A stretch of 64,000 nucleotides of DNA from Candidatus Kerfeldbacteria bacterium (GCA_016214565.1 JACROE010000002.1:408007-472006), one strand, 5' to 3'. Shown: positions 38,160-62,897, counted from the first letter of the stretch. Numbers and translations are program-made. The notes: generated by a model from the sequence alone, not told the origin.

Positions 38160-38341
38160 AAACAAAATATTCCTAAAGGGACAATAAGCTAGTCCTCAGT
38201 ATACCAGGGCACACTGCCTGGGTCAACGGAAAACCGCTATCCACTATTCATGCACAGGTTATGCACTTTATCCTCGTGGGAGCGGGTTCTGCCAATCAAC
38301 GAACTATGGTACCATGAGTAAACATTTAGGAAGTTTTTTCT

Positions 38342-41086: not shown

Positions 41087-41105
41087 CCGTTTCGTAACGC
41101 ACCTA

Positions 41106-46444: not shown

Positions 46445-47467
46445 GTGGGTATTCCTATGGATCAGAAAACGCCACTTCATCATAAAGCTCAGCAGATCGC
46501 TCAGGAGCGCGGATTTCATATTCGAAAGAAGATTTACGAAGCGTGGGAGCCGGGCCGCCCAATACCGCGTAACATAATTTACCTGGGCACGTGGCAGGAT
46601 AAACCGGCCGCTTTTAAGATATATGATGAACGGCGGTTGAGTGACGAGCCGCTGGCATTGCAAGCCTGGTTACAGCACAGTACCAGCACCCAGCTGATTG
46701 CCCCGGCATTGTATGATTTTGCCATAGCGTCGCCCCATGCGGGTTGGCTGATCATGGAAGAATTGCCCACGCCAGGCGGCTTCTTCGCTTCCCCACTGTC
46801 AGTTGAGGCGCGGGAGCGTTTTCTTCAATTGTATCAATGGTATCGAGTAGAATTTCCGAAGCAGCCGACTCGTCAGCTCTCACTCGCCGAAAAACTGCCC
46901 GCAGCTGAGTATCACCAGTATCGGATTTATCGTTGGTTCGAACAGGCAGTGCACGCTGAGGAAGCGCGCCGGTTGCGGCATCAGCCGACGCTATTGTCTG
47001 AAACCGAGTTCCCCCTTCTTTTTAGGCGCGCTATGGCCATCATTGGAAAACTTTTTGCGGGCAGGGCGATGGTCTGGTCGCATGGGCATTTCAAGCCCAA
47101 AGAACTTTATCATGATGAAACGCGTGATCGGTATTATTTAACTGATTTTGCCCATGTCAAAATGTACCCGGAGGGGTATGAGCTGGGGTTTATGGTGTGG
47201 GCCGATTATTTAATGTCCGGGGATTGGCGATTGCCGTATGCGGAGTGGGCGCTGCCGGTTCGGTCCTGGCGACGACGATTAGTGCGGGTGGCCATCGGAC
47301 TTGGTCTGCGCGAGCCAGCTGAGCTGATTCGAGGCAGCCTGATTGAGCGGTCGCTGGGCACTATTTTAGCTGACATTGTTGCCCGCGAGCAGCCCATTGA
47401 ACAGCAGAAAAAGCATCTGGCATTATTGATGCAGCTGCTGACTGAGCTTGTGACTGATATTCGCTAG
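46445..47467 (+). CDS. protein-kinase-like (aminoglycoside phosphotransferase/CotS/maltokinase-fold) family protein
   Basis: Brenner-like HGHFKPKEL and DFAHV (DFG-like) motifs. About 340 aa. Similar N-terminal architecture to 50028-51011. Confidence 0.45.
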   Translation: MGIPMDQKTPLHHKAQQIAQERGFHIRKKIYEAWEPGRPIPRNIIYLGTWQDKPAAFKIYDERRLSDEPLALQAWLQHSTSTQLIAPALYDFAIASPHAGWLIMEELPTPGGFFASPLSVEARERFLQLYQWYRVEFPKQPTRQLSLAEKLPAAEYHQYRIYRWFEQAVHAEEARRLRHQPTLLSETEFPLLFRRAMAIIGKLFAGRAMVWSHGHFKPKELYHDETRDRYYLTDFAHVKMYPEGYELGFMVWADYLMSGDWRLPYAEWALPVRSWRRRLVRVAIGLGLREPAELIRGSLIERSLGTILADIVAREQPIEQQKKHLALLMQLLTELVTDIR

Positions 47468-48444
47468 TGTCCTCGGTAGAATTTCGCGGCGTCTTCGGGT
47501 GCGACCGTGTTCACAATAACCTTTGAACCAAGCTCTACGCCGGCCCAGGTGTCACGGCGGGGGCATACCCGTAGATAAAAGTATTCTTGCGCGTCGGTGA
47601 CGGTTTGATGCATGTAGAAATTGTAGGGAAGCTGCAACTCATTCAAACGCTTGATAATTTTTTTGAGCACTTTTGCGAGCGACTTCAATTCGTCTTCCTC
47701 AAGGACGGTGATATTGTCTGCTTGCCGTTTTGGCACAATCCACGCTTCATAATTGTAGGATGAAGCGTAGGGGCAGAAAGCGGTGAGATATTTGTCACTG
47801 TAGATACGGCGCGGCCCGCGGGCTTCGTCCTGGGCTAATTTTTTATAGTAGGAGATGCCATTTTTCGTTTGGTAGGCATTAGCTCGGCTGAGTTTGTTAA
47901 TTATATGGCTCGGCACAAAGCCAGCCGCCATGATTTGAGAGTGGGCGTGTACCAGTGAAGCGCCGGCAACACCACCGTGGTTTTTGAAAATAATAATATA
48001 CTTGATTTTTGGATCTTGCATGAGAGCCAGGGTGCGCGCCACGTATGCTTTCAGCACTCGGTAGACGTGGGCCTCGCCAAATTCTGCAAATTCTTTATTA
48101 TGGTGGGGTGTTTCGATAACCACTTCCTGATGACCGTAGGCTTTAGGGTTGTCTGGACTGACAAAAGGGAAGATATTTTTTATAACCTTAATTTCCCACC
48201 ATTCGTCGGGCCCTTCTTGATACAGAGGCCGTTGCGACATCATTTTTGTTTCCAAGCAGAACGGACAGTCCTTCGATTTGACCGGCACATCCTGGACGCG
48301 TTGTGTATCATGTGGGCGTTTGGCGCGTTTGGGCGCTACGATAATAAAGCGATCGTGGATTTCATCAATCCGGATTTCGCTATTAGTAGGGAATATTTTA
48401 ACCTCGGGGAGAGGCTTCTTATTTGTTTTTTTTGACGTTGGCAT
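47464..48444 (-). CDS. GalT-family (HIT superfamily) hexose-1-phosphate nucleotidyltransferase/phosphorylase-like protein
   Basis: Zinc knuckle DCPFC, HIT-type HAHSQI (H-x-H-x-Q), and GalT-like length and organisation. Confidence 0.6.
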   Translation of the reverse strand: MPTSKKTNKKPLPEVKIFPTNSEIRIDEIHDRFIIVAPKRAKRPHDTQRVQDVPVKSKDCPFCLETKMMSQRPLYQEGPDEWWEIKVIKNIFPFVSPDNPKAYGHQEVVIETPHHNKEFAEFGEAHVYRVLKAYVARTLALMQDPKIKYIIIFKNHGGVAGASLVHAHSQIMAAGFVPSHIINKLSRANAYQTKNGISYYKKLAQDEARGPRRIYSDKYLTAFCPYASSYNYEAWIVPKRQADNITVLEEDELKSLAKVLKKIIKRLNELQLPYNFYMHQTVTDAQEYFYLRVCPRRDTWAGVELGSKVIVNTVAPEDAAKFYRGH

Positions 48445-49921
48445 AGTGTGGTTTGCTCGCTGTAGTAATCAGTTTGTCGTAGAGTGCTTGATAGGCGCGA
48501 GCTGAGGCTTCCCAGGAAAAATCCAGTTCCATATCATGCATGACTACAGTATGCCATGATTTTGGCTGCTGATAAAGGGTGATCGCTCGCTGGATGGCGC
48601 TGCGGAATGCATCGGCGGTTAATTCGGTGAAGACAAAGCCCTCTCCGTCCGTTCCATCAGCTCGAACCTCGTGCACAGTGTCTTTCAGTCCTCCCGTGGC
48701 TCGGACAATTGGCAGGGCGCCATAGCGCATGGCAATCATCTGTCCTAGGCCGCACGGCTCATAGCGGGAGGGCATGAGGAAAGCGTCGCTGCCGGCATAG
48801 ATCTGATGGGCCAGGGCATTATCAAATCCAATGCGTACCGCAATTGATTCGGGGTGACGTAGCGCCGCGTCGGTCATCAGCTTCTCCAATGTTTCAAGCC
48901 CGGTGCCCAAGACAATGAGCTGGGCGCCCATGGCGGCAATATCATCAGCGATGTCGGCCAGGAGATCGACGCCTTTTTGCTGAGCCAGGCGCGTGACAAT
49001 GGCCAAGAGGGGCTTTTCGGGCGCCGGGGGCAGCCCCATTGTTTTTTGCAGGGCCGCTTTGCAGGCAATTTTGCCGGCACGGTCATTGTTTGAGAATTTT
49101 TTTGTAATTAAGGGATCAGTAGCGGGGTCAAATATACTTACATCAATGCCATTTAAAATGCCGGACAAATCAGCGCGGCGAGTCGCAATGTCTCCCTCCA
49201 GTTTGGCGCCGTATTCTGGGGTGAGTATTTCCTCGGCATACGCCTGCGATACCGCGTTCAGAGCATCGGCGGTTAAGATGCCCTGGCGTAGGCTGATTAA
49301 CATCCCATCTTTTGTATTAGCCAGCACGGGATGGTCTGCTATGGAGAAGCCTAAAAGGTTAAGCACGGTTTCTTGGGTGTACCAGCCCTGGTATTCTAAA
49401 TTGTGAATAGTGAGCAGCGTTTTTGCTTTGGCCAGTTTTGGATCTGATTTACCCAGCACATCCTTGATCAAGGGCACCATGCCAACATGCCAGTCCTGGC
49501 AGTGAATGATGTCGGGGTACCATGCTAGCGCGGCAGGAAGCGCCACGGCGGCCCGGGAAAAGAAAAGGAATCGCTCTGCCTCATGCTTGGTTTTCTCAGG
49601 ACCGGTTATTTCATCAAAATAAATACTCCCTGTACCCAAGTAGTGGGGGTTATCGATGAGATACAGTGGCACTTGGCTATCCGGGATCGTAGTTTGAAAG
49701 ATGCTGATATATTCAGTGGTCCCCGCAAATGCAACGGGCACTTTTTCCGCAACCAGCTTCATTGCATTTGGTGGGAGCGTAATAGTGCTGTATTTTGGCA
49801 TGACTGCTCGGATATCAGTGGTGTTGCTGATAAGTGCTTTGGGTAGGGCGCCAGCCACATCGGCAAGACCACCAACTTTTGCTAATGGTGCTAGTTCAGC
49901 AGCAATAAAGAGTACGTTCAT
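48419..49921 (-). CDS. glgA: glycogen/starch synthase (GT5)
   Basis: MNVLFIAAELAPLAKVGGLADVAGALPKAL (the K-x-GGL motif) and a GT-B C-terminal domain. Start at 49921; the track ORF extends to 50083. Confidence 0.85.
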   Translation of the reverse strand: MNVLFIAAELAPLAKVGGLADVAGALPKALISNTTDIRAVMPKYSTITLPPNAMKLVAEKVPVAFAGTTEYISIFQTTIPDSQVPLYLIDNPHYLGTGSIYFDEITGPEKTKHEAERFLFFSRAAVALPAALAWYPDIIHCQDWHVGMVPLIKDVLGKSDPKLAKAKTLLTIHNLEYQGWYTQETVLNLLGFSIADHPVLANTKDGMLISLRQGILTADALNAVSQAYAEEILTPEYGAKLEGDIATRRADLSGILNGIDVSIFDPATDPLITKKFSNNDRAGKIACKAALQKTMGLPPAPEKPLLAIVTRLAQQKGVDLLADIADDIAAMGAQLIVLGTGLETLEKLMTDAALRHPESIAVRIGFDNALAHQIYAGSDAFLMPSRYEPCGLGQMIAMRYGALPIVRATGGLKDTVHEVRADGTDGEGFVFTELTADAFRSAIQRAITLYQQPKSWHTVVMHDMELDFSWEASARAYQALYDKLITTASKPHYANVKKNK

Positions 49922-50027
49922 AGGGTGCGTGGAAATATTTGTTTCTGCTATTAGTGTACCATGAAAATCGTTTCCGCCGGTAATTGGCCGAGTCTGGTTT
50001 GGCGCACAAAGCCCGGTGCAATAATAT

Positions 50028-51011
50028 TTACCGGGAAGGAAATTGTGGGTACTGCCGAAGCTGTTTGGCAGCGGCTCGGGCAAGATGAGAAAAGTGAGCG
50101 CGTCGGGGGTAAAAATGATACCCGACTACATTGAAGAGAGATTGAATAAAGACCGTCATATCCCATAGTCGTTTGGCGTCGGGATAGTGGCGATAGGCGT
50201 GTTCGTAATGTTTTTGCCATGCCGCTTGCCAGCGGGGGCGCTCGTGGGCGCGGAGCCACATCGCTACATAGTCATAGGTAGGAAGGGCCCAGCCAATATT
50301 TTCCCAATCAATGATTTTCCATTGTTTCCCGGCGCGAAGGAAATGCGCCGGATACAGTTCTTGGTGTGCCAGTACGCGCGGGGCACGTTTGAATACTTTG
50401 TCGGCTGCCATAAAATATGGTCGACAGCTGGCAGCAAATCCCGGCTGTTGCATAAAGGTGTCTACTAACTGCGCGTAGGGTGCGATAAATTTCCACAGGA
50501 AGCTCGGCAATTGCGGAGAATAGAGCAGTGATTGAAAAGATTTGGGGAAGACGCTAATTTTTTGTTGCTGCAGTGAGGCGAGTGTTGTTCCTATCTGTCG
50601 TTGTGAAGATTGATTGAAAAATGAGTTTACATATTTTGTTTCATTGTGTGGCTGCAGTGCGCCTGTACCACGTATTTCTTCGCGGATGTACCAGGCATGT
50701 GGACTGATACCCCCATGCCATACGCGTGGCGTGGCGCGTGAAAGTGGTGAGCGTAATTTTTGAATGGTCGATAGGAAGAGGTATTCCCTCCCCAGTTTTT
50801 CATTCGTCAATCGCTCCTGAGCGATCGGTCGTATGGTCATTTTAAATATTGCGGGTCGTCCGTGGTATGTACCGCTCGCCAAAAAATACCGCGGACCACG
50901 GGAACGTATTTGGGTAAGGTGAAACTTTTTTTCTTCCATCAACGCAGTGATGCGTGCCATTAGCCGGCGTTGCGCCGGAGCAGAGAGTGGCGGATGTTTT
51001 CCCATCACCAT
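50028..51011 (-). CDS. protein-kinase-like (APH/CotS-fold) family protein, possibly catalytically degenerate
   Basis: IIDWENIGWALPTYDYVAM (the IDWE motif), but the catalytic-loop position reads AHQELYPAH, with no HGD. Confidence 0.4.
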   Translation of the reverse strand: MVMGKHPPLSAPAQRRLMARITALMEEKKFHLTQIRSRGPRYFLASGTYHGRPAIFKMTIRPIAQERLTNEKLGREYLFLSTIQKLRSPLSRATPRVWHGGISPHAWYIREEIRGTGALQPHNETKYVNSFFNQSSQRQIGTTLASLQQQKISVFPKSFQSLLYSPQLPSFLWKFIAPYAQLVDTFMQQPGFAASCRPYFMAADKVFKRAPRVLAHQELYPAHFLRAGKQWKIIDWENIGWALPTYDYVAMWLRAHERPRWQAAWQKHYEHAYRHYPDAKRLWDMTVFIQSLFNVVGYHFYPRRAHFSHLARAAAKQLRQYPQFPSR

Positions 51012-51013
51012 AG

Positions 51014-52396
51014 TTAGTGTTTGGTGGTCAGCTGATCTTGTTTTTCTTTAAGCTCGTTGACTCGATTGCGGATTTGGGCGGCGCGTTCGTATTCCTGAGC
51101 ATCTGCTGCTTCGTGCATTTGCTTCTCGAGATTGTCCAGCATTTGCTTGAATTCATCAGCCGGAATATAGGGGATGTCAGTGGTGATGCGCTGGGTCACA
51201 TCTTCGTCGGCTGATTTGGCCATAACGTCTACCTTGCCGCTGCGTTGCCATTCAAAAGCAGTGAAGATAATATTTTGATACAGTTCTTGAGCGTGCATTT
51301 TCTCTTGCTCTGAGAGTTGAGAGCGCTGCACTATTTCCTTGAGATCTTTGGCGCCCGCTTCTATCATTTCGATACTCCACCAGGGCATCGCTGACGCCCA
51401 CCAGTACTGGTCAGAGTGTACACCGCGGTCAAGCCGCTCGCGCAATACGGGGTAATCAGGATGGGTGGGACCTAATTTTTCCACGGCGGAAATAGCCATA
51501 TAGGTGAGCTCCCATTGCATGGCATGGATTTCATTATCCTTATCCTGCCAGCGGGAATACGGTGTGTTTTGTTCAATATCCCGTTTCATCAGTGCCCACG
51601 ATGATGGTCGGGGGTCAATGGCTGCTCGTTTAGAAAAATGGCTTGGCAGATCGCTGAGGGTGGCAGCGGTGAGCTCTGGTGTCTCATAGAGGTCAAACAG
51701 GAGCTGCTCAAGACCGGGGCGATGGTGTCCAAACGTTTCCCCATCCATTGCCGTGATGAGGTATTCATTATTATTCACTCGTTCGCCAAGTAGTTTCACT
51801 AGCATGCTTCCGGAAAAGACGCTCATGCCAATTTCTGCGGAAAGGATGCGGAAACTGGCGGCTCGCTCTCGGAAAAAAACAAAGAAGTCATCAAAACCTT
51901 TGAGCGCATAAATAGTTGACCAGTCAACCTGGTTTAGGTCGCCTGAGTGAGCCAACTCATCCAAAATCATCCAGCGATATCCGAGCTTGGCGACTGTTTC
52001 GCCAACCGCACGGCTATAGGCCATTTCGGGCGGGAAAAATCCGGTTGGATTGTAAATGTCACCAAAGAATTTTTTATTAGTGATGGTGTTGAGTTCAATT
52101 TGGCGCTTGATTTCAGATTCTGGCATGAGAGGGAGGAAGGGGTGGTATTTGGCGCTGGCGGTCAATTCAATTTGCCCCTTCTCTGCTAAGAATCTAATAT
52201 CGCGAATAACATCTTTACAATTATATCGATCAAAGAGTTCGGTCAAGCCAGCGTTAATATTAAGTGTTAGTTTGGCGCTGGGGTGTTTTTTGAGGCCGCT
52301 CATGAGTTTGCGGTAGCTCTCATTGGCGATTTTTTTTACCCAATATTCTTTTTGGGTGGGTGGTTGATAGATATGGAGAAAGTTTGCCCAATACAT
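51014..52396 (-). CDS. glycoside hydrolase family 57 protein with a C-terminal UVR-like helix
   Basis: N-terminal WANFLHIYQPP...HPFLPLM...FFPPEMAYS resembles the GH57 (alpha-amylase/branching/4-alpha-glucanotransferase) core. The C-terminus ADAQEYERAAQIRNRVNELKEKQ resembles a UvrB/C UVR motif. Start MYWANF is at 52396. Confidence 0.7.
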   Translation of the reverse strand: MYWANFLHIYQPPTQKEYWVKKIANESYRKLMSGLKKHPSAKLTLNINAGLTELFDRYNCKDVIRDIRFLAEKGQIELTASAKYHPFLPLMPESEIKRQIELNTITNKKFFGDIYNPTGFFPPEMAYSRAVGETVAKLGYRWMILDELAHSGDLNQVDWSTIYALKGFDDFFVFFRERAASFRILSAEIGMSVFSGSMLVKLLGERVNNNEYLITAMDGETFGHHRPGLEQLLFDLYETPELTAATLSDLPSHFSKRAAIDPRPSSWALMKRDIEQNTPYSRWQDKDNEIHAMQWELTYMAISAVEKLGPTHPDYPVLRERLDRGVHSDQYWWASAMPWWSIEMIEAGAKDLKEIVQRSQLSEQEKMHAQELYQNIIFTAFEWQRSGKVDVMAKSADEDVTQRITTDIPYIPADEFKQMLDNLEKQMHEAADAQEYERAAQIRNRVNELKEKQDQLTTKH

Positions 52397-52404
52397 AGGT
52401 GTGG

Positions 52405-53637
52405 TTATGATGAAGTTATTTTTTTGCCCCCAATATAATGAACATAGGTATACGGGCTCGCCGCGAGATACCGATCCGCGATGCGCTTGAATCGATTTTG
52501 TTTTTGCCAGACCTCGGCAGTATGGATAATATGATCGGCGTATGTTTGTGCCCAACGTTGTTTTGGTGCAAGGAGATTGGCTAACTCAACCCATTCGGTT
52601 GCTTTGGACACTATGATTTTTTGGCTCCACCACGGTTTGGCTGAGGCCCACCACCATTGGTCTGACGCACAATATTGATCAAGCAATGTACGTGCTTTGG
52701 AATATTCAGGATGTTTTACGCTTTTTTGTACCAGCGCAATCACTCGACTACATAATTGCCATTGTAACTGGTGGATAGAATTGGTTGCGTCATCCCAAAG
52801 AATATAGGGCTGCCGTCGTCGTAATTCTTCAGGTCGGGAAGACCAACTAGAACGACGTGGGGTGGTTGGTCGCGCGACTGGCGTTTGTTTAATTAATTCT
52901 GAAATAGTAACTGTTTGCACGCGCTTGTTGGTCACCAGTCGTTCCCAAAGCCGTTCGGCGCCGGGGCGATGATGACCCAGGGTTTCGCCGTCCATGGCGG
53001 TAATAAATGCATGACCGGTATAGGCGGTGTGATCAACCTCATCCCAGAATGCGTTTGGTTTATTCAGCGGGATATGAAAGGCGATATAATCACTAAGCCA
53101 TTTATTTCGATAGATGACCGTTTGACCAGTGTGTGTATGTCGGTAGCGAAATGTAGGATCAATGGCACCTAATTCCCCACGCTGGGCAATTTCATCCAAG
53201 ATGAACCAGCGGAATCCCAGCTGTTGAGTGAGCGTAGCGACACGGGGGTCATACGCCATTTCTGGGAAGAAAAATCCTCGTGGTTGGTAGATTGATCCAA
53301 AATAGGCACGATTAACTTTTGTATTACGTTCAATTTGGCGCAACACTTCGTGACTTGGCAATTTAGGCAGTATCGGATGATAGATAGCCGAGCCCACTAG
53401 TTCAACTTGTCCACGCCGGGCAGCGGCAGTAATGAGACGAATGATGTCTCGGTACCCATGGTGGGCAAGCTGTTCAGTCAGCGATGCGCTCACGTTGAGG
53501 GTGATATGAATGTGGGGATGTCGTCGGAGTACCTGTAACAGTGGTCGGTAACTCTCACGAACGACTTTTCGAATAATCTGGAGCGACCACTGGGGTGGTT
53601 GGTAGATATGGAAAAAATTTGCCCAAGTTATTCTCAT
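52405..53637 (-). CDS. glycoside hydrolase family 57 protein (tandem paralog)
   Basis: MRITWANFFHIYQPP...HPILPKL...FFFPEMAYD has the same GH57 signature. 410 aa, no UVR tail. Confidence 0.7.
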   Translation of the reverse strand: MRITWANFFHIYQPPQWSLQIIRKVVRESYRPLLQVLRRHPHIHITLNVSASLTEQLAHHGYRDIIRLITAAARRGQVELVGSAIYHPILPKLPSHEVLRQIERNTKVNRAYFGSIYQPRGFFFPEMAYDPRVATLTQQLGFRWFILDEIAQRGELGAIDPTFRYRHTHTGQTVIYRNKWLSDYIAFHIPLNKPNAFWDEVDHTAYTGHAFITAMDGETLGHHRPGAERLWERLVTNKRVQTVTISELIKQTPVARPTTPRRSSWSSRPEELRRRQPYILWDDATNSIHQLQWQLCSRVIALVQKSVKHPEYSKARTLLDQYCASDQWWWASAKPWWSQKIIVSKATEWVELANLLAPKQRWAQTYADHIIHTAEVWQKQNRFKRIADRYLAASPYTYVHYIGGKKITSS

Positions 53638-55109
53638 GCGCGTTTGCTTTTGTTTTTTTTAGCCAGCGCGTATAGTTGGACGTACTTCTGCGCAGGCAAT
53701 TCCCAGGAATAGGTTTGTTGCATACCGCGGCGCATAAGTTCTTCCCAGGCACTTGGGTATTTATAGTTTTCCATTGCCCGGGCGACGGCGATTAAGAAAT
53801 CGGCCGTGCTGTAATGCTTGAAGACGAAACCATTGCCTTTTCGGGTGCGGGGATTGAAATTAGTTACGGTGTCTGAAAGTCCGCCGGTTTCATGAACGAT
53901 CGGCACGGAGCCGTACCGTAGGCTGATTAATTGCGACAGTCCGCAGGGCTCAAAGCGCGATGGCATCAGGAACATATCAGAACCTGCATACGTTAATGAG
54001 GCTAGCTCCTCGGTAAACGGAGTATAGATGCCAATCTTTTTTGGGTGTTTTTTTGCAATGCGCTTAAAGAAGGCGATGTACTCCCGAAAACCGCTACCCA
54101 CAATGACCATTTGTAGTGGTAGACGGATAAGTACGTCGATTGATTCCATGATTAAGCGAAATCCTTTTTGTTCGGTGAGGCGGTTCACCACGCCGATTAA
54201 GGGGATATCGGGATTTTGGTCGAGCCTAACTTTTTTTTGCAATGCCAGTTTGTTTTTTTTCTTCCGGGAGAGTGAGCTAACGTCGAATGGGTAGGGCAAG
54301 TTATTATCAAAGGCTGGGTTATTGACGGCGTAATCAATGCCATTGATAATGCCGTAGAGGTCGCTTTTGCGTTGGCGTAGCAATCGATCTAGGCCCTGTC
54401 CGAGTTCTGGTGTTGTGATTTCTTCGGCATACCGCTCGCTGACCGTATTGATCAAATCAGCATACACGATGCCACGCTTGGTGAAATTAAGATTGGCGAT
54501 TTGCTGCGACGCAGTTTTCGTTGGGTCGCCTCGTCCGGGGTCTATTTTTTTAATAGGCACTTCCCACCAATTACTCCCCATTTGGTAGGTAAGATTGTGC
54601 AGCGTATAAAGTGTGGCAGTCCGTTTGAGTGAAGGATAGCGATTACGATGTTTAGATAAGAAGTTAGGGATCAGCCCGGTTTGCCAATCATGGCAGTGTA
54701 TGACGTCAGGACGGAGTTTCAAAAGTTCAATCAATTTCAGAGTAGCAATGTTAAATACAAAGAAGCGCAGATTGTCGTTTGGGTAGCCATAAATATGGGA
54801 GCGGCTGCCGAAGAGTTGGTTGTTATGGATAAATAGTATTGTCAGGTGACGATTATACTGTAATTTATTAAAGGTGATACTATACTTTGTTTTACCTACT
54901 GAGACGGTGGCTTTCCCCGGAACCGCCACCATATTAAGATTTTGCTGCTGCATGAATTTATAAAACGGGGTGATCAAATACACCGTGTGTCCATTTTCAG
55001 ACAGGGCTTTGGGCAATGATTTGGCCACATCGGCCAAACCGCCGGTTTTGGAATACGGCGCCACCTCTGAGGCAACACTGACAATGCGTAATTTTTTTGC
55101 TGCAGCCAT
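53634..55109 (-). CDS. glgA: glycogen/starch synthase (GT5), second copy
   Basis: LRIVSVASEVAPYSKTGGLADVAKSLPKAL (K-x-GGL) and a GT-B fold, diverged from the first glgA. Confidence 0.85.
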   Translation of the reverse strand: MAAAKKLRIVSVASEVAPYSKTGGLADVAKSLPKALSENGHTVYLITPFYKFMQQQNLNMVAVPGKATVSVGKTKYSITFNKLQYNRHLTILFIHNNQLFGSRSHIYGYPNDNLRFFVFNIATLKLIELLKLRPDVIHCHDWQTGLIPNFLSKHRNRYPSLKRTATLYTLHNLTYQMGSNWWEVPIKKIDPGRGDPTKTASQQIANLNFTKRGIVYADLINTVSERYAEEITTPELGQGLDRLLRQRKSDLYGIINGIDYAVNNPAFDNNLPYPFDVSSLSRKKKNKLALQKKVRLDQNPDIPLIGVVNRLTEQKGFRLIMESIDVLIRLPLQMVIVGSGFREYIAFFKRIAKKHPKKIGIYTPFTEELASLTYAGSDMFLMPSRFEPCGLSQLISLRYGSVPIVHETGGLSDTVTNFNPRTRKGNGFVFKHYSTADFLIAVARAMENYKYPSAWEELMRRGMQQTYSWELPAQKYVQLYALAKKNKSKRA

Positions 55110-55115
55110 AGAGAT

Positions 55116-55613
55116 TTAGGTGGGGAGATGGGTGTGTGCGCCGCACAGGGCGATAGCTAATGCATCAGCCATATCATCCGGTCGTGGCAGGGAGCGCAAT
55201 TTGAGGATTTGTTTAACCATTTTTTGCATCTGGGATTTATCCGCCTGGCCATAGCCAGTGACTGCTTGTTTGACTTGAAGGGGGGTAAATTCGCAGATGC
55301 GGCAGCCCATCTGGATTGCGGCGAGGTAAGCAACGCCGCGGGCTTGGCCAACCGTAAGTGCGGTCGTAACATTCCGAGCAAAAAATAATTGTTCAATAGC
55401 GACGACGTCGGGGCGGTACCGCTGCATCAGGCCAGTCAGATCGTCATAGATAGTGTGCAGTCGTTTACCGAATGCCATCTGGGCTGGCGTCGTGACCGTA
55501 CCTGCGCTGATGATGTGGTATCCGGTTGCCCGTTCCTGGATAATGCCATATCCGGTTGTGGCGAGGCCCGGATCAATCCCCATGATGATGGGCTTCGGTT
55601 TAGATTTCCGCAT
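55116..55613 (-). CDS. ruvC: Holliday junction resolvase RuvC
   Basis: IMGIDPGLATTGYGII start with the RuvC catalytic Asp/Glu pattern. 165 aa. Confidence 0.85.
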   Translation of the reverse strand: MRKSKPKPIIMGIDPGLATTGYGIIQERATGYHIISAGTVTTPAQMAFGKRLHTIYDDLTGLMQRYRPDVVAIEQLFFARNVTTALTVGQARGVAYLAAIQMGCRICEFTPLQVKQAVTGYGQADKSQMQKMVKQILKLRSLPRPDDMADALAIALCGAHTHLPT

Positions 55614-56322
55614 TGGTAAAGATATTGGTAACGTCTTCGCTTTCCTCTAGCTCTTCAATAAGTTTTTGGATGCCGTTGCGTCCTGCTTCATCCAGGGGCA
55701 CGGTGGATTGGGGGACTGATTCGATTTCGGTACTGGTGAGGCGGAATTGATTTTTTTCAAGATGTTTTTTGAGGCTGGGCAATGATTCTGGCGTGCTGGT
55801 GATCGTGAATCCTTCGGGATCAGTACGAATATCTTCGGCGCCACCTTCGATGGCCGCTAATTCAAATGCTTCAGGATCGCTCACGTCTTCTCGATCAACG
55901 CGGATAATCCCTTTTGACGTAAACATCCAGCGAACGCTATTGGTACTTCCTAAATTAGCATTATTATGTGAGAGTATTCGTTTGATGTCGCTGGCGGTGC
56001 GGTTTTTATTGTCGGTGGCCGCCTCAATAATGACGGCTACACCATGGGGGCCATAGGCTTCATAAACAACCTCTTCGATGATAGCGCCTTCACCAACTCC
56101 GGCGGCACGCTGGATAGCCCGTTCGATGTTATCATTTGGCATATTAGCGGAGCGTGCCGTATCAATCGCCATGCGTAATCGAAAATTCATTTCCGGATCC
56201 GGGCCACCCTGCTTAGCCGCAACGGAAATACCCTTTGCTAATTTGGTAAAAAGGCCACTACGACGTTGGTCGGTGACCGCTTTTTGACGTTTAATTTGTG
56301 CCCATTTCGAGTGACCAGACAT
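55600..56322 (-). CDS. yebC: YebC/PmpR-family DNA-binding regulator
   Basis: MSGHSKWAQIKRQKA...NMPNDNIERAI. Start at 56322; the track ORF extends to 56400. Confidence 0.85.
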   Translation of the reverse strand: MSGHSKWAQIKRQKAVTDQRRSGLFTKLAKGISVAAKQGGPDPEMNFRLRMAIDTARSANMPNDNIERAIQRAAGVGEGAIIEEVVYEAYGPHGVAVIIEAATDNKNRTASDIKRILSHNNANLGSTNSVRWMFTSKGIIRVDREDVSDPEAFELAAIEGGAEDIRTDPEGFTITSTPESLPSLKKHLEKNQFRLTSTEIESVPQSTVPLDEAGRNGIQKLIEELEESEDVTNIFTNAEI

Positions 56323-56423
56323 AGCGCTACCGATGGGTGAAAAATATTCTGATAACCTTTGTACTATACCATATTTTTGTGTTATTATCAATGGTATCAC
56401 GTTAAACTTTCACCGTCTTTTTT

Positions 56424-57497
56424 ATGCGGATTTTAGATAATCGATCGGTCGTAAAACGATATGATCGTTCTGGTATGCTCGGTTCGATTGAATCACTTGC
56501 TTTGCAATGCCAGCAGGCCTGGGATGACACTCGACACATCATTGTTCCTCCAGCATTTCGCAGGGTGCGGCACATTGTGATAAACGCTATGGGCGGTTCG
56601 GCGCTTGGCGCTGATGTTATTCGTACTGTTTTTCAAGATCGGCTACCGTTACCGCTGATACTGACCAATCAGTATACCGTTCCGAAATTTGTTGATCGGG
56701 ATACATTATATATAGTATCGAGTTATTCAGGCACAACCGAGGAAATAACCGCAAGTATCGCGCCAGCCGTTCGTGCTCGAGCAAAGTTAATGATTATATG
56801 CGCCGGAGGAACCCTCGCTCGCTACGCTCGCCAGCATAAAATCCCCGCATATATTTTCACTCCACGATTTAACCCATCCCAACAGCCGCGCATGGCAGTC
56901 GGATATTCAGTGGCTGGGATTCTGGGTTTACTGTGCCAAGCTGGGCTGCTCAAAATTACTCAATCTGAATTTAATCAGGTAATTAGACAGATTGTGATGG
57001 CGCACGCATCGTTGGGCATAGCACGCCCAACCGTGCGTAATGTGGCTAAACAAACGGCTCAGGCGGTGCATGGTCGGGTGCCGGTGATTATTGCAGCCGA
57101 GCATCTATCGGGGATTGCTCACGTTATGGCAAATCAAGTGAACGAAAATAGCAAAGCGTTTTCCAATTTTTTTCTTATTTCGGAAATGAATCACCATTTG
57201 ATGGAGGGTCTGCGTTTCCCGAGGTCTAATAAGCGAAATTTAGGGTTTATTTTTTTGGAATCACGCTCGTATCATCCACGGAATCAGCGGCGCTTTGCCA
57301 TTACTCAGCGCGTGTTGACTCGGGCCGGCATTCCTTTTGTCCGGTATCAGGTGAAGGGGCCCACGGTGTTTGCTGAGGCGATGCAGGCGTTGACATTTTC
57401 TGGGTATGTTGGTTTTTATGGCGCGTTGCTCAATAAGATTGACCCGTCACCGATACCGGTGGTTGATTATTTCAAAAAAGAATTGTCTCGGTCCTGA
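56424..57497 (+). CDS. bifunctional phosphoglucose/phosphomannose isomerase-type SIS-domain protein
   Basis: Two SIS-like halves (INAMGGSALGADV; SYSGTTEE) and an overall archaeal-type PGI/PMI pattern. Confidence 0.6.
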   Translation: MRILDNRSVVKRYDRSGMLGSIESLALQCQQAWDDTRHIIVPPAFRRVRHIVINAMGGSALGADVIRTVFQDRLPLPLILTNQYTVPKFVDRDTLYIVSSYSGTTEEITASIAPAVRARAKLMIICAGGTLARYARQHKIPAYIFTPRFNPSQQPRMAVGYSVAGILGLLCQAGLLKITQSEFNQVIRQIVMAHASLGIARPTVRNVAKQTAQAVHGRVPVIIAAEHLSGIAHVMANQVNENSKAFSNFFLISEMNHHLMEGLRFPRSNKRNLGFIFLESRSYHPRNQRRFAITQRVLTRAGIPFVRYQVKGPTVFAEAMQALTFSGYVGFYGALLNKIDPSPIPVVDYFKKELSRS

Positions 57498-57500: not shown

Positions 57501-59147
57501 TTGGTACCGTCCCGTGCTAAGCTGCTTATGAGCAGTCTCCGCCTCCATGCTTGGTGGGGACTGCTGCGTCTGAATCTACTTACGATGCTTTTCATTTCCC
57601 AAACTACTCGTCGATTCTTCCCCTGGGCATTGCTTCTAGTCGGCAGTCTGGGGATTTTTATATGGATACAATCAATTGATACATTTCCTGATCCGGATTC
57701 GTTTTATCATATCGAAATGTCCAGGCAAATTGCTGCGCAGGGAGTGATGACCACCTTTCCCTGGCTTCAAGTTTCGACGCTGCGGGATGCCTATATTGAT
57801 CAGCATTTTTTGTATCACGTTTTTTTGATTCCTTTTACGCACTTTTTTGATCCCATTCAAGGAACTAAATTCGCCCACGTGCTGTTGAATACCGGCTTTA
57901 TTATGTTGGCGTATGGATTGCTGCGGCGCGAGCGTGTGCCTGGAGCATTTTGGTTCGCCGTGCTTCTCCTTGCTTCTTCTCCATTTATGTTTCGACTGAA
58001 CCTGGTGAAGGCGCCGGTCGTTTCATTATTATTTTTAGTTGGTGGATTGTATTTATTGTTTCGCTATCGGTATGTGCCGTTATTTTTCTTGGCAGCCGGG
58101 TATGTATGGGCGTACGGCGGGTTTAGCATTTTGATCATGGCAAGCGGGTTTTACGCTTTCGTCAGTTTAGTGCTGGATGCGTTTCGGCTCGGCGGGCGTT
58201 TAGCCTGGCCGAACATTTTGCGGGCAAGCAAAGAGCTGCGGATGCTCGGCGTCGTCTTAGCGGGTACCACCGTAGGAATTTTTATTAACCCTCATTTTCC
58301 CGTTAATCTTCAATTTTATTGGCAGCAATTTGTTCAGATCGGAGTGGTAAACTATCAGAAAGTTATTGCGGTAGGTGGTGAATGGTACCCATACCAATGG
58401 CTTAATTTATTGACCAGCACCGCCTTGATCACCGTTTTAGTATTATCTTCTCTGGTTCTGGGTGCTGCTTTTTGGCGGAGACTGGGGCGCAAACAATTGA
58501 CACTCGCCCTTCTGTTTATTGTATTTTTGGTGTTCACTCTCAAGTCAAAACGTTACGTGGAATATTACGTCCCCGTCGCCGTTATTTTTAGTGCGATGAT
58601 GTTCCGGGCTGTCGCTGGGGATCATTGGAAACAAGAGTGGTTGCCCCTGCTGCGTCGTTGGACCCGACAGTATTTGATCGTGACTATTATTGTAAGCCTT
58701 TATTTAGTCATTGGCAGTGTGGCGATTATGACCAAAGACGTCAAACGACTGCATCAAGATTATCTGAGTGGTATTTCGACTGAACGATTCGCCGGTGTAG
58801 GGGCGTGGATGCGTGATCATATCACCACTGGCGCCATCGTTTTCCATTCAAGCTGGGATGAGTTCCCCATTTTATTTTATCGCAGTCCCCAGGCGTATTA
58901 CATCGCCGGCCTTGATCCGACCTTTTCCTACACGTATAATGTCGATTTGTGGAATAGTATCGTCGATATTACGACGGGAAAGCAAAAGGAGGGCATCTAT
59001 CAGACGATTCGCGATACGTTTCACGCGCAATATGTTTTTGTGGAATCCAATCATGCAGCGTTCAACTCTGCGGTGAAGCGGACGGACGGGTTTCGCCAAG
59101 TGTATCGCGACGGTGAGGCGATTATTTATGAAGTGGTGTCTGAATAA
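57501..59147 (+). CDS. GT-C-fold glycosyltransferase-like polytopic membrane protein
   Basis: About 12+ TM helices. The first-loop acidic motif DPDSFYHIEMSRQIAAQG resembles the ArnT/PMT signature, and there is a large C-terminal soluble domain. Confidence 0.5.
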   Translation: MVPSRAKLLMSSLRLHAWWGLLRLNLLTMLFISQTTRRFFPWALLLVGSLGIFIWIQSIDTFPDPDSFYHIEMSRQIAAQGVMTTFPWLQVSTLRDAYIDQHFLYHVFLIPFTHFFDPIQGTKFAHVLLNTGFIMLAYGLLRRERVPGAFWFAVLLLASSPFMFRLNLVKAPVVSLLFLVGGLYLLFRYRYVPLFFLAAGYVWAYGGFSILIMASGFYAFVSLVLDAFRLGGRLAWPNILRASKELRMLGVVLAGTTVGIFINPHFPVNLQFYWQQFVQIGVVNYQKVIAVGGEWYPYQWLNLLTSTALITVLVLSSLVLGAAFWRRLGRKQLTLALLFIVFLVFTLKSKRYVEYYVPVAVIFSAMMFRAVAGDHWKQEWLPLLRRWTRQYLIVTIIVSLYLVIGSVAIMTKDVKRLHQDYLSGISTERFAGVGAWMRDHITTGAIVFHSSWDEFPILFYRSPQAYYIAGLDPTFSYTYNVDLWNSIVDITTGKQKEGIYQTIRDTFHAQYVFVESNHAAFNSAVKRTDGFRQVYRDGEAIIYEVVSE

Positions 59148-59149
59148 AT

Positions 59150-60346
59150 ATGCGAATACGGCTTATTACCTGGGGAGTATTGGTAATCGTTAGTTGCTGC
59201 GCCATGGTAGTACTATGGGCGCCTGATTTCATTCAGGTGCCATTTGGGAGCGAGGGAGCGAAAGCGCGATTGATCCGGGATGATCACGAGCTTGATATTT
59301 TTTATCAGCGGGGTTCATGGGTGACGCGCGGTATAACACCGTATGATGCCAGTATTTTTCAGGAATATCCGCAGGCAGGTTTAGCCTATATTACGCTACC
59401 CTATTTGTTTGGCAACGAGTATGAGACGTATCGTTGGGTATTGGTTGTCATGAATACGGTGACGCTGGTTAGCCTGGTCGTCATCAGCCTGCGCCTCTTA
59501 AAAAAACTTAATCGTTCCCCTTGGTATATTTTTTTACTACTCCTGCCCTCGATGCTGTATTTTGGGTTGAGTCGGTTTGATGTGCTGGTCGCATTAGCAG
59601 TTCAGATTGGATTATTATTGATATTGAGTCATCGATGGCGTTGGGCCGCGATTTTGTTTGCCGTCGCTTTTTTAATTAAATGGTATCCCATTATTTTTCT
59701 CCCGTTGTTGTATGCATATATCAAGCAGACCGAGGGAGAGCGAGCCAGCCGAGTGATACGAGAATTTTATTTGATTGGGGTGAGTATCGTGGCGAGCGTG
59801 TTGGTCGCCAGCTTTGTTGTTGATGGATTCGTTTCATTGCGTCCGTATTTGTTTCATGGAGCTCGAGCTGGCGGTGTTGGCAGTTTATATTTTATGCTGT
59901 TGCAAGGCCCCCTGCTGTCTACTGGCATCCCACCATTGAATTATTTAGGGCTCACTGTTTTTCTGCTGCTGCAGGTCAGTCTTCCGTTGTATGCACTCGT
60001 ACAATGGCGGGTGGTTGCTCAGTGGCTCATAACACCACGTCAGCTGATTCTCTGGATGAGTTTGGCGACGGTTTTGTTTACTTTATTTTCTCGATTTTAT
60101 TCACCACAGTGGATCGTCTGGTTTGTGCCACTCTTGTTGCTGGTGGCCGACAAACGGCTTGCCGGGTTGATCATCGGGTACGATATTTTAAATTATGTAA
60201 GTTTTCCTTTGATTTGGCAGGTGTGGGGCCCATTTTCAACTGGATATTTATGTATATCCCTCGTGATCATAGTTTGTTTAGTGCTGATTGTGAGACGAGT
60301 TTTTTTGCTAATATTAGATAAAAAAGAACTTGCTCCATCTGAATGA
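59150..60346 (+). CDS. polytopic membrane protein (putative GT-C/DUF2029-like glycosyltransferase)
   Basis: About 10 TM helices. Start is 3 nt after the preceding stop. No soluble domain. Confidence 0.4.
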   Translation: MRIRLITWGVLVIVSCCAMVVLWAPDFIQVPFGSEGAKARLIRDDHELDIFYQRGSWVTRGITPYDASIFQEYPQAGLAYITLPYLFGNEYETYRWVLVVMNTVTLVSLVVISLRLLKKLNRSPWYIFLLLLPSMLYFGLSRFDVLVALAVQIGLLLILSHRWRWAAILFAVAFLIKWYPIIFLPLLYAYIKQTEGERASRVIREFYLIGVSIVASVLVASFVVDGFVSLRPYLFHGARAGGVGSLYFMLLQGPLLSTGIPPLNYLGLTVFLLLQVSLPLYALVQWRVVAQWLITPRQLILWMSLATVLFTLFSRFYSPQWIVWFVPLLLLVADKRLAGLIIGYDILNYVSFPLIWQVWGPFSTGYLCISLVIIVCLVLIVRRVFLLILDKKELAPSE

Positions 60347-60428
60347 ATGGCGTATACTTTTGGCAGATTGTGAGTTCTGTGTGATTTGGCCAGCTACCCG
60401 ATAAGATAGAAGAAAGTGACCGCACCCT

Positions 60429-62850: not shown

Positions 62851-62897
62851 TGAAGCGTGGACACATGATATTTGAGTACATAACGATTTAATCCAAT

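Follow-up and report, generated by a model that had tools for sequence, protein, structure and literature searches.

How does a cluster that encodes two glycogen synthases, and no recognizable ADP-glucose pyrophosphorylase beside them, obtain the activated sugar that its synthases need? The question arises from a 64,000-nucleotide stretch of DNA (the window, at its full length) of a 1.1-Mb contig from Candidatus Kerfeldbacteria (Patescibacteria), with dnaA and dnaN, both identified in the window from sequence and position, lying adjacent. We put the chances at about even that the locus is a conserved origin-proximal Patescibacteria operon for intracellular α-1,4-glucan turnover, in which a GalT-like enzyme would link ADP-glucose to glucose-1-phosphate without GlgC. 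If true, Patescibacteria may feed glycogen synthesis by an unusual, cheaper route.

Gene content and conservation of the cluster

Open reading frame (ORF) calling combined with Pfam and NCBIfam models recovered all the cluster genes that a preliminary description of this DNA had named, in the places where it had put them; the GT5, GH57, APH (for K2) and GalT/HIT families were all found by these models. The features are as follows.

43782–44681, minus strand: ROK-family glucokinase-like gene (Pfam ROK, 1.6e-66)
46457–47467, plus strand: K1, divergent APH-fold kinase-like protein with an HGHFK loop (hhalign to the K2 family)
47464–48444, minus strand: HIT/GalT-family enzyme, Pfam DUF4931, ADP-glucose-phosphorylase-like (Pfam, NCBIfam, structure-database homologs)
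48419–49921, minus strand: glgA1, GT5 glycogen/starch synthase of 500 aa, counted from the Met of MNVLFIAAE (Pfam, TIGR02095)
50028–51011, minus strand: K2, APH-fold kinase-like protein (Pfam APH, 2e-8)
51014–52396, minus strand: 460-aa GH57 protein carrying a UVR helical hairpin at its C-terminus (Pfam GH57 and UVR)
52405–53637, minus strand: short GH57 protein, 410 aa (Pfam GH57, 4.5e-38)
53634–55109, minus strand: glgA2, GT5 glycogen/starch synthase, 491 aa (Pfam Glyco_transf_5, TIGR02095)
55116–55613, minus strand: ruvC (ORF and synteny)
55600–56322, minus strand: yebC; the ORF extends to 56400 and the probable start is the Met of MSGHSKW
56424–57497, plus strand: PGI/PMI-type sugar-phosphate isomerase, bifunctional (Pfam bact-PGI_C, 3.5e-33)

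The minus-strand genes yebC, ruvC, glgA2, GH57, GH57-UVR, K2, glgA1 and the GalT-like gene form a tightly packed operon, the junctions of which are overlaps or gaps of a few nucleotides (6 nt from the ruvC stop codon to the glgA2 start), with the exception of the 106 nt that separate K2 from glgA1. The first gene of this co-directional block is yebC, and a promoter-like site lies closely upstream of it (56391–56363). The PGI/PMI gene, whose product is matched by the NCBIfam PGI/PMI models below their own cut-offs, diverges from yebC and is a conserved neighbour in related loci, as is the ROK gene within a syntenic TyrRS-ROK-PBP1A block.

Dozens of species-level Patescibacteria genomes share this core gene order, indicating that the arrangement is not due to chance. 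Among the 47 related species-level loci whose upstream DNA covers 8 kb or more, GlgA is encoded in 34 (twice in 27), GH57 in 32, and an APH kinase orthologous to K2, at the equivalent position, also in 32. Most related loci have YebC-RuvC upstream of the glg genes, and in 37 of 66 loci the gene immediately upstream of the GalT-like one encodes GlgA. Related clusters also hold genes for GH15 glucoamylase-like, GDE_C-like, PHP, HAD and TrmB proteins, which fit with α-glucan metabolism. Part of this synteny may reflect a conserved origin-proximal gene order. Judging from gene content and its recurrence, this is a real, widely conserved α-glucan cluster of the ultra-small CPR/Patescibacteria, predicted to make and remodel an internal glycogen-like store.

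The synthases and the GH57 pair

GlgA1 and GlgA2 share 36% identity, and both consist of a Glyco_transf_5 N-domain (Pfam 2.5e-64 and 3.3e-65, respectively) and a GT1 C-domain; they reach 521 and 505 bits against TIGR02095, the cut-off of which is 328. The KxGGL donor motif ascribed to both synthases is indeed present, as AKVGGL in GlgA1 and SKTGGL in GlgA2, together with the EPCGL catalytic motif (YEPCGL and FEPCGL, respectively). Since the family models align only from residue 55 (TIGR02095) of the GlgA1 ORF (48419–50083), the ATG at 49921 is the most likely start, and the 54-residue N-terminal extension is most likely an artefact of ORF calling. TIGR02095 is named "ADP-glucose type", yet some GT5 enzymes also accept UDP-glucose; we consider ADP-glucose the most likely donor of GlgA1 and GlgA2.

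The two GH57 proteins are paralogs (38% identity) that score 104.8 and 131.7 bits against Pfam PF03065, for a cut-off of 21.2. For GH57-UVR (Pfam GH57 6.7e-30, UVR motif 3.2e-10), the ORF spans 51014–52555, but the real start is at 52396, which gives a product identical to database protein P0257. Both proteins contain the motifs HIYQP, GQ(I/V)EL, PEMAY, DGET(F/L)GHH and SDQ(Y/W)WWAS, with the catalytic residues at Glu124 and Asp218 in GH57-UVR and at Glu126 and Asp216 in the short GH57; these catalytic and motif residues are invariant in 30 homologs. Both N-termini open directly with the first conserved region (HIYQPP), leaving no room for a signal peptide, which points to cytoplasmic enzymes.

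The GH57 fold is confirmed at the level of a predicted structure: the AF2 model of GH57-UVR has a pLDDT of 84.5 and the 25 PDB entries ranked best by Foldseek all belong to GH57. The model is equally distant from branching enzymes, glucanotransferase and amylopullulanases. The branching activity that had been suggested for this pair was not borne out by these even matches, nor by the curated NCBIfam branching models, which reach only 25–34 bits over the N-terminal part, against cut-offs of 920–1000. We also rejected assignment to the branching subfamily on the spacing of the catalytic residues, since the Glu and Asp are separated by 90–94 residues, as in the Aquifex amylopullulanase (E256/D352), with no long insertion between them. 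The pair could be placed neither among the branching enzymes nor in another subtype, and we propose that it belongs to a so far uncharacterised GH57 subgroup. The UVR tail is an appendage, as previously noted, but not an unusual one, since it is conserved family-wide; this architecture occurs in more than 120 Patescibacteria protein clusters.

The GalT-like enzyme and a possible source of ADP-glucose

Pfam scans of the window (the 40 largest ORFs together with dnaA and dnaN) revealed no GlgC/NTP_transferase, GH13, GT35 or PGM gene, and neither GlgE nor TreS was found at the cluster, where no GH13 gene occurs. GT35 phosphorylase is likewise missing among the recurrent neighbour genes, and NTP_transferase from about 1.2 Mb of related loci; neither the window nor any of 80 related loci gave a match in phmmer searches with E. 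coli GlgC and GalU. The earlier picture of an α-glucan cluster without GlgC, GlgB or GlgP nearby is thus supported by the scans of the window. The classical GlgC-GlgA pathway of glgBXCAP-type operons also clusters GT5 synthases of the ADP-glucose type with glucan-processing enzymes, whereas the window and the 80 loci are devoid of GlgC, a GH13 branching enzyme, GlgX and GT35 phosphorylase; in their stead the window encodes a pair of synthase paralogs and a pair of GH57 enzymes, along with an APH-fold kinase and an enzyme of the HIT family. The glycogen gene sets of Methanococcales and Thermococcales combine glycogen synthase with a GH57 amylase/glucanotransferase and a GH15 glucoamylase, resembling the window in the use of GH57 instead of GH13, and its relatives in the presence of GH15. 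These archaea possess NTP-dependent sugar-1-phosphate nucleotidyltransferases and a GT35 phosphorylase, and their clusters are not known to include a HIT-family enzyme or an APH-fold kinase.

The HIT enzyme of the window is encoded at the end of the operon, where its ATG overlaps the glgA1 stop codon by 26 nt, an arrangement indicative of translational coupling to glgA1. The protein has CPFC at residues 60–63 and HAHSQ at residues 166–170, providing a Zn site (C60, C63, H115, H166), the nucleophile H168 and Q170, all of which are invariant in 20 homologs. It scores 47.4 bits against Pfam DUF4931_N (cut-off 24.1), a family described there as functionally uncharacterised, and bears the NCBI name "DUF4931 domain-containing protein". 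Its closest solved relative is the ADP-glucose phosphorylase At5g18200 of Arabidopsis (E 3.4e-39, 138 bits), which aligns over the full length (residues 21–324 versus 22–346), followed by a GalT at 7e-21. The parallel with the plant enzyme that had been drawn earlier is supported, given that E. coli GalT reaches 62 bits (4.5e-16), in an alignment that ends at residue 284, and Pyrobaculum GalT 78 bits.

At5g18200 (PDB 1Z84/2H39) belongs to the GalT branch of the HIT superfamily, and shares with the window protein the CxxC...H...HxHxQ zinc and nucleophile site as well as the active-site stretch AGASxxHxHSQxMA. Nevertheless, their identity is only roughly a third, and the plant enzyme has no defined physiological role or known link to a synthase operon, while the window protein is an uncharacterised DUF4931 member. 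ADP-glucose phosphorylase is the most likely activity predicted from this relationship. The protein also carries the motifs of class I GalT (EC 2.7.7.12), namely HxHxQ and a CxxC/His zinc site, and is matched by Pfam and NCBIfam GalT models. Its assignment as a Leloir GalT was not supported: the protein does not reach the cut-offs of the GalT equivalog models (87 versus 102.1 bits for TIGR00209, 106 versus 448 bits for NF008724) and galK/galE partners are absent, since searches of the window and 80 loci with E. coli queries detected neither GalK nor GalU and just a single, distant GalE-like ORF. The grouping with genuine Leloir GalTs against which the enzyme's proposed role had been set was not seen.

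These GalT features could also be read in another way, with an ordinary glycogen cluster whose synthases would draw on a GlgC or GalU from another part of the genome, and an unrelated GalT-like hexose-1-phosphate nucleotidyltransferase of sugar salvage (e.g. for envelope glycans), placed there only by the syntenic origin-proximal block yebC-ruvC ... tyrS-ROK-PBP1A-dnaN-dnaA. The flanking housekeeping genes are indeed syntenic as well. The GalT-like gene persists without GlgA or GH57 within 10 kb in 13 of the 47 loci and directly follows ruvC in 6, suggesting a function that does not strictly depend on adjoining glg genes; in others its neighbours are GT4 arrays or a gene for a PfkB sugar kinase. 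Moreover, a UDP-glucose-based set (UGP2, a K16150 synthase and glgB) has been reported in some Saccharimonadia (bioRxiv 10.64898/2026.09.16.751625). That set likewise represents a capacity for glycogen synthesis within the Patescibacteria, alongside GH57-type amylase and glucoamylase genes, but it belongs to another class and differs from the window in its UDP-glucose pyrophosphorylase, synthase type and GH13 branching enzyme, with no HIT enzyme reported. We regard this ordinary-cluster reading as unlikely, since ADP-glucose phosphorylase is a much closer relative of the enzyme than is any GalT, the gene of the enzyme lies immediately downstream of glgA1, overlapping it, wherever glgA1 occurs, and the related loci hold neither Leloir partners nor an NTP_transferase.

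We therefore return to the phosphorylase. According to this reading, the two paralogous GT5 synthases would elongate a glycogen- or amylose-like reserve from NDP-glucose, most likely ADP-glucose, which the two paralogous cytoplasmic GH57 enzymes would cut or rearrange. The GalT-like enzyme would most likely interconvert ADP-glucose + Pi and glucose-1-phosphate + ADP via an adenylyl-histidine intermediate, tying the donor pool of the synthases directly to glucose-1-phosphate with no GlgC-type pyrophosphorylase. The equilibrium of the plant enzyme favours ADP-glucose breakdown, so that net synthesis would need a high glucose-1-phosphate/Pi ratio or the pull of the synthases. Replacement of GlgC by the GalT-like enzyme is plausible, and depends on glgC being absent genome-wide; the absence observed covers the 64-kb window of this 1.116-Mb genome and 80 related loci, and would have to extend to the other ~1.05 Mb of the genome.

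The same equilibrium could suggest the opposite direction of flux, with GlgA running in reverse (glucan + ADP to ADP-glucose) and the HIT phosphorylase releasing glucose-1-phosphate + ADP, the pair replacing glycogen phosphorylase. This would conserve the energy of the glycosidic bond for an ATP-short fermenter, and one GlgA paralog could be specialised for it. The lack of GT35, the phylum-wide conservation of two divergent GlgA paralogs and the coupling of the HIT gene to one particular paralog, glgA1, are consistent with such a pair. Nevertheless, reversal of a GT5 synthase is thermodynamically uphill, a hydrolytic route is already available via GH57, GH15 (in relatives) and the ROK glucokinase, and the source of ADP-glucose for synthesis would be left unexplained, making this degradative scheme quite improbable.

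The kinase-like proteins

The preliminary description counted two APH-fold proteins as cluster members, and related them to maltokinase. K1, for which the ORF spans 46445–47467 on the plus strand and the ATG at 46457 is the start codon of the database protein, has no Pfam match, but aligns to the K2 family in hhalign (97.4% probability, E 1.3e-11). Its family comprises about 120 clusters with a conserved HGHFK motif (HGHFKPKE family-wide). The gene is convergent with the GalT-like gene, no homolog occurs in any of the 80 related loci, and the homolog in another Kerfeldbacteria genome sits on an unrelated contig. Its membership was thus not confirmed, and this distribution suggests that K1 is probably not a functional part of the cluster.

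K2 matches Pfam APH with 34.7 bits (cut-off 23.2), and its AF2 model (pLDDT 91) resembles APH, choline kinase, NahK and MTR kinase in Foldseek. The APH fold, and with it the superfamily of maltokinase, is thereby supported for both proteins, whereas a specific link to maltokinase is not: the fold matches of K2 are evenly distributed across a wide range of small-molecule kinases (10–16% identity), maltokinase is absent among its best 60 profile matches and best 50 fold matches, and neither GlgE nor TreS accompanies it. The loss of the HGD catalytic loop that had been noted in one of the two is real but affects both, K1 having HGH and K2 having HQE..H (HQELYPAH) in place of HGD..N. K2 retains the ATP-binding Lys57 and Glu76 as well as Asp235 of the DWE motif. 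Neither the altered loop nor these residues vary within the K2 clade, suggesting selection for a non-standard function.

This conservation raises the possibility that the kinase-like proteins are regulators, with K2 as a pseudokinase or protein kinase controlling the synthases or GH57 enzymes, paired in close relatives with the adjacent PHP-family phosphoesterase, and K1 outside the pathway. In 11 related loci the gene after K2 encodes a PHP domain, and all K1 family members have HGH rather than HGD and show no synteny with the cluster. We consider a regulatory role somewhat doubtful, because the structural neighbours of K2 are small-molecule kinases rather than protein kinases, and because more distant orthologs at its position have the canonical HGDxxxxN and DxE motifs. 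In the metabolic reading that we prefer, the APH-fold kinase would probably phosphorylate a sugar released from the glucan, while K2 itself, with its Asp replaced, may still bind ATP or substrate but not perform the usual chemistry of a kinase. A comparable logic (sugar to sugar-1-phosphate to NDP-sugar) is found in the bifidobacterial GNB/LNB module, which also encodes an APH-fold anomeric kinase, NahK, together with a GalT-family transferase, GalT2. However, K2 and NahK are only 14% identical in structural alignment, and GalT2 is a monomeric class II enzyme with an auxiliary domain, partnered by GalE and a phosphorylase, whereas the window transferase is class I-like and partnered by glycogen synthases and GH57.

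The association of the kinase with α-glucan enzymes, which had also been proposed, is supported by gene order and by GH57-APH fusion proteins with the canonical HGD loop in three species (loci L042, L047 and L060). These fusions resemble the enzyme-enzyme fusion TreS-Pep2 (GH13-maltokinase) of the GlgE pathway, in that a glycoside hydrolase-family enzyme is joined to an APH-fold kinase, which also argues against regulation; they differ from it in having GH57 instead of GH13, no GlgE or TreS, and a kinase with no specific similarity to maltokinase.

Gene organization and conservation of the α-glucan cluster

All of the genes that the preliminary description had assigned to an α-glucan cluster were found again by ORF listing and Pfam and NCBIfam annotation. 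Three of the encoded proteins (GalT-like, K2, and GH57-UVR) show 100% identity to database proteins of a Candidatus Kerfeldbacteria metagenome-assembled genome, encoded on a contig of 1,116,013 bp. Between 56322 and 47464, the minus strand carries, in order, yebC, ruvC, glgA2, GH57, GH57-UVR, K2, glgA1, and the GalT-like gene. This cluster and its neighbours comprise the following features:

36589-37389, yidC
38342-39706, dnaA
39986-41086, dnaN
43782-44681, ROK glucokinase-like gene
46457-47467 (+), K1, kinase-like, convergent with the GalT-like gene
47464-48444 (-), GalT-like (HIT) enzyme, 326 aa; GalP_UDP_transf 1.5e-12, DUF4931_N 2.6e-12
48419-49921 (-), glgA1, synthase; TIGR02095 521 bits (cut-off 328)
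50028-51011 (-), K2, kinase-like; Pfam APH 2e-8
51014-52396 (-), GH57-UVR, 460 aa; C-terminal UVR motif 3.2e-10
52405-53637 (-), GH57, 410 aa
53634-55109 (-), glgA2, GT5 synthase; TIGR02095 505 bits (cut-off 328)
56424-57497, PGI/PMI, divergent from yebC

Adjacent genes of the minus-strand block overlap or lie 2-8 nt apart, the sole exception being the 106-nt gap between K2 and glgA1, and the ATG of the GalT-like gene is located within glgA1, 26 nt from its end. The start of glgA1 is most likely 49921, because the family models align from residue 55, and that of GH57-UVR was set at 52396 because a database protein of 460 aa matches exactly. There is a promoter-like site upstream of yebC, and the frequency of terminator-like sites in the region does not exceed that in shuffled sequence, as chance predicts; both results are consistent with a single operon. 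No RNA elements were detected in the cluster region, the only ones in the window being tRNAs located elsewhere. The operon thus combines two synthases, two cytoplasmic GH57 proteins, a kinase-family protein, and an ADP-glucose-phosphorylase-like enzyme. The presence of dnaA and dnaN, together with a switch in the sign of the GC skew at about 36-40 kb, identifies 36000-41100 as the replication-origin region and places the cluster just beside it; in related genomes, a dnaN-dnaA-yidC block likewise flanks the cluster.

In order to evaluate conservation, one genome per GTDB species was scanned with an alignment of the GalT-like family, which yielded at least 594 stretches encoding relatives; six-frame ORFs from the best 80 of these loci were then searched with the proteins of the window. 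The titles of these 80 loci nearly all name Patescibacteria or its candidate groups; three name other phyla, and the remaining ones are generic or evidently wrong (e.g. "uncultured Gammaproteobacteria"). Patescibacteria-type synteny is seen in the loci whose titles name Omnitrophota or Pirellulales (L012, L026) and in many of the Gammaproteobacteria-titled ones, while the locus titled Vicinamibacterales (L061) is too short for synteny to be judged; all of these are probably mis-binned or mislabelled.

The order that recurs among the best 80 loci is YebC, RuvC, (GH15), GlgA2, GH57, GH57-UVR, APH kinase, (PHP), GlgA1, GalT-like, TyrRS, ROK, PBP1A, dnaN, dnaA. Counting only the 47 loci in which the GalT-like gene is preceded by 8 kb or more of sequence, GlgA is present in 34 (two copies in 27), GH57 in 32, and an APH-family gene in 32. 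In 37 of the 66 loci having sufficient upstream DNA, no more than 300 bp separate the end of a GlgA gene from the GalT-like ORF. The two GH57 paralogs share 38% identity and the two GlgA paralogs 36%, and the duplications are ancient, as both pairs occur throughout the group. The operon is conserved across a large part of Patescibacteria, with the ROK glucokinase and PGI/PMI as conserved neighbours.

Some relatives have an extended cluster, with GH15 glucoamylase-like genes in the ruvC/glgA2 interval (L004:786-1928 and 15 other loci) or a GDE_C/GH100-like gene (L072:7358-8503), both of which are absent from the window. In the closest relatives, a PHP-domain phosphoesterase gene lies between K2 and glgA1 (L002:6302-7183 and 10 other loci), whose product might be a phosphatase that works opposite the kinase; this gene is missing in the window, where K2 and glgA1 are separated only by the short gap.

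A GalT-like enzyme related to ADP-glucose phosphorylase

The closest relative of known structure to the GalT-like protein is Arabidopsis At5g18200, an ADP-glucose phosphorylase, which aligns over residues 21-324 (E 3.4e-39, 138 bits), compared to 78 bits for Pyrobaculum GalT and 62 bits for E. coli GalT, whose alignment ends at residue 284. The active-site stretch of the GalT-like protein is AGASLVHAHSQIMA, where At5g18200 has AGASMSHSHSQMMA and E. coli GalT has MGCSNPHPHGQIWA. Among 20 homologs, the most distant at 50% identity, C60, C63, H115, H166, H168, and Q170 do not vary; following the class I GalT-type pattern, C60, C63, H115, and H166 are predicted to form a zinc site and H168 to be the nucleophile.

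An alternative is that this protein is a genuine galactose-1-phosphate uridylyltransferase of the Leloir pathway, as its JGI name (UDPglucose--hexose-1-phosphate uridylyltransferase) would imply; NCBI names it only "DUF4931 domain-containing protein". The protein scores under both NCBIfam GalT equivalog cut-offs. The window and the 80 loci were also searched with E. coli GlgC, GalU, GalE, and GalK queries. For GalK, GalE, and GalU, these queries returned a single distant GalE-like ORF among the 80 loci and nothing in the window. The sub-cut-off scores, the closeness to At5g18200, and the search for Leloir partners all argue against the Leloir alternative, and by the tests available the protein is not a Leloir GalT. 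The most economical reading is that of a putative ADP-glucose:phosphate adenylyltransferase. The overlap with glgA1 ties the GalT-like enzyme to the substrate of the synthase.

Evidence from other loci speaks against a strict functional link: the GalT-like gene is retained without GlgA or GH57 within 10 kb in 13 of the 47 loci, directly follows ruvC in 6 loci, and elsewhere adjoins GT4 arrays or a PfkB kinase. The PfkB-family sugar kinase gene lies directly upstream of the GalT-like gene, with no glg genes there, at L017:8964-9899 and in three similar loci, and this adjacency is a further kinase-plus-HIT pairing. A DUF4931 structure from Bacillus cereus was still termed functionally uncharacterised in a 2026 preprint.

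The GH57 and kinase-like proteins

Both GH57 proteins possess the five conserved regions of the family in complete form, with catalytic residues Glu124/Asp218 in GH57-UVR and Glu126/Asp216 in the 410-aa protein, and both are cytoplasmic, given that they begin directly at the first conserved region. The preliminary description had proposed branching or glucanotransferase activity for this pair, an assignment that our comparisons do not bear out. NCBIfam branching-enzyme models give 25-34 bits (cut-offs 920-1000), and PDB sequences match weakly, over the N-terminal ~140 residues only. Foldseek with the AlphaFold2 model of GH57-UVR (pLDDT 84.5) confirms the fold, and the model is about equally near to branching enzymes, Thermococcus 4-α-glucanotransferase, and the Staphylothermus and Aquifex amylopullulanases (E 5e-16 to 1e-13, TM about 0.6, 14-18% identity). 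As this comparison does not separate the three activities, we rejected any specific GH57 subtype. The Glu-Asp spacing of 90-94 residues is like that of the Aquifex enzyme (E256/D352, from PDB entry titles). The pair is a distinct GH57 subgroup. Its spacing also resembles that of the Thermococcus glucanotransferase, rather than that of branching enzymes; should both proteins lack branching activity, a linear glucan would be made.

Of the 120 best database homologs, only one lacks the UVR appendage. It is modelled as a helical hairpin with moderate confidence, and we would guess that it serves in oligomerisation or partner binding. The NCBI name of GH57-UVR is only "UvrB/UvrC motif-containing protein", and with the GalT-like enzyme named as a uridylyltransferase, automated surveys miss or misread this pathway.

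The K2 family occupies the same operon position in 41 of the best 80 loci. Its distant members show canonical HGDxxxxN and D(W/F/Y)x motifs, and the clade of the window (L001-L010, L023, and L027) shows an H-Q/Y-E loop with His replacing Asn. Within this clade K57, E76, H216-Q217-E218, H223, and D235-W-E-N are invariant; the site is under selection yet is not a standard kinase site. The preliminary description had one kinase-like protein without the HGD loop, whereas both are altered, with HGHFK in K1 and HQE in K2.

The confident AlphaFold2 model of K2 (pLDDT 91) confirms the APH fold, and its similarity to macrolide and aminoglycoside kinases, choline kinase, homoserine kinase II, NahK, and methylthioribose kinase is much the same throughout (TM 0.5-0.6, 10-16% identity). 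Since profile and fold searches give matches at the superfamily level only, the proposed kinship with maltokinase was not substantiated, and neither "maltokinase" nor "antibiotic kinase" was retained as a specific name. The solved structures closest to K2 include antibiotic kinases, which would fit an unrelated resistance kinase. Nevertheless, three species encode GH57-APH fusions of ~745 aa (L042:6746-8989, L047:6628-8868, and L060:6745-8973), with an N-terminal GH57 and a C-terminal APH-fold kinase bearing a canonical HGD loop. A role of the kinase family in α-glucan metabolism is best supported by these fusions, which lead us to reject the resistance-kinase alternative. In these three loci, a polysaccharide pyruvyl transferase gene replaces glgA1 upstream of the GalT-like gene. 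Double-APH proteins of ~700 aa are found at the K2 position in several Kerfeldbacteria-like genomes (L014:6457-8550, L018:6263-8389, and similar loci).

K1 has no Pfam match but is homologous to the K2 family by profile comparison (97.4% probability, E 1.3e-11). Its own family, with a conserved HGHFK loop, comprises ~120 clusters among 1.84 billion representatives. No K1 homolog occurs in the 80 related loci, and one in another Kerfeldbacteria genome lies on a contig with unrelated genes. K1, which had been counted within the cluster, is therefore a mere neighbour, and we rejected it as a part of the system.

A possible GlgC-independent route

Pfam scans of the large ORFs in the window revealed no NTP_transferase, GH13, GT35, or PGM, the remaining ones being pilus, envelope-glycan, tRNA-modification, and replication genes, and the E. 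coli GlgC query found no GlgC-like ORF in the window or the 80 related loci. The reported absence of GlgC, GlgB, and GlgP thus stands for the window, beyond which the genome has a further ~1.05 Mb, and for ~1.2 Mb of related loci.

Cytoplasmic GH57s encoded between two glycogen synthases in a phylum-wide operon point to an internal glucan reserve. The GT5 synthases would elongate an internal α-1,4-glucan from ADP-glucose, and the HIT enzyme would equilibrate ADP-glucose and Pi with glucose-1-P and ADP. Sugars released by the GH57 enzymes, and in relatives also by GH15 or GDE-like enzymes, may enter glycolysis via glucokinase and PGI or be re-activated by the kinase. Added up, the reactions of HIT enzyme and synthase equal that of glycogen phosphorylase, so either direction would be possible, set by the glucose-1-P/Pi ratio. 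The published equilibrium of plant ADP-glucose phosphorylase reportedly favours phosphorolysis, in which case synthesis would depend on the pull of the synthase or on sugar-1-phosphate being supplied locally. An anomeric kinase might be such a source, and a comparable coupling of a kinase to a HIT transferase is known from the NahK-GalT2 pair of bifidobacteria. In this genome, K2 lacks the catalytic Asp, and the kinase branch may thus be inactive or altered.

Much of bacterial diversity falls within Patescibacteria, whose genomes are tiny and whose cells are believed to subsist on scant ATP. It is conceivable, if rather unlikely, that many of them build a glucan reserve by a GlgC-independent, ATP-sparing route without an NTP-consuming pyrophosphorylase, in which the APH-fold kinase would turn GH57-released sugars into sugar-1-phosphate, the HIT ADP-glucose phosphorylase would run in reverse, making ADP-glucose and Pi from glucose-1-P and ADP, and the GT5 synthases would draw this reaction forward. 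Were this so, it would be a fourth bacterial α-glucan route, besides the GlgC, GlgE, and amylosucrase-type routes, and the first physiological role for the plant ADP-glucose phosphorylase family and DUF4931. In some Saccharimonadia, glgB has been reported along with genes for a UDP-glucose pyrophosphorylase and another type of glycogen synthase (bioRxiv 10.64898/2026.09.16.751625), indicating that Patescibacteria are not uniformly devoid of conventional glycogen parts.

The families of all parts are already known, as is their overall function in α-glucan metabolism; what is new is the composition of the cluster and the probable link to ADP-glucose. Full-text searches found no paper linking HIT/GalT-like proteins, DUF4931, or ADP-glucose phosphorylase to bacterial glycogen or CPR, a comprehensive 2024 review of prokaryotic α-glucan enzymes mentions neither ADP-glucose phosphorylase nor Patescibacteria, and CPR papers have read GH57 and GH15 genes as degrading environmental starch. 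If the HIT enzyme supplies or recycles ADP-glucose, it would provide an entry point to bacterial glycogen metabolism that is not in that review, give DUF4931 and the orphan ADP-glucose phosphorylase family of plants a function, and account for cheap carbon storage by energy-limited symbionts.

Beyond PGI/PMI, 57501-63821 encodes a run of large multi-pass membrane proteins (57501-59147 and 60429-61892, Pfam matches being mostly absent in the run), followed by a GT87-like gene and a GT2 gene; many Patescibacteria loci conserve the first membrane protein next to PGI, and the run is probably an envelope-glycan assembly system. An envelope polysaccharide block at 8788-15661, in which no sugar-nucleotide synthesis gene was found, includes two Wzy_C/O-antigen-ligase-like proteins, a PMT_2-like protein, a GT4, and a Wzx-type flippase. 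Type IV pilus genes at 689-7447 and 32721-34532 encode PilM, PilC/T2SSF, two PilB-type T2SSE ATPases, and one shorter T2SSE ATPase, along with a histidine kinase, a pilus gene set that is usual for CPR.
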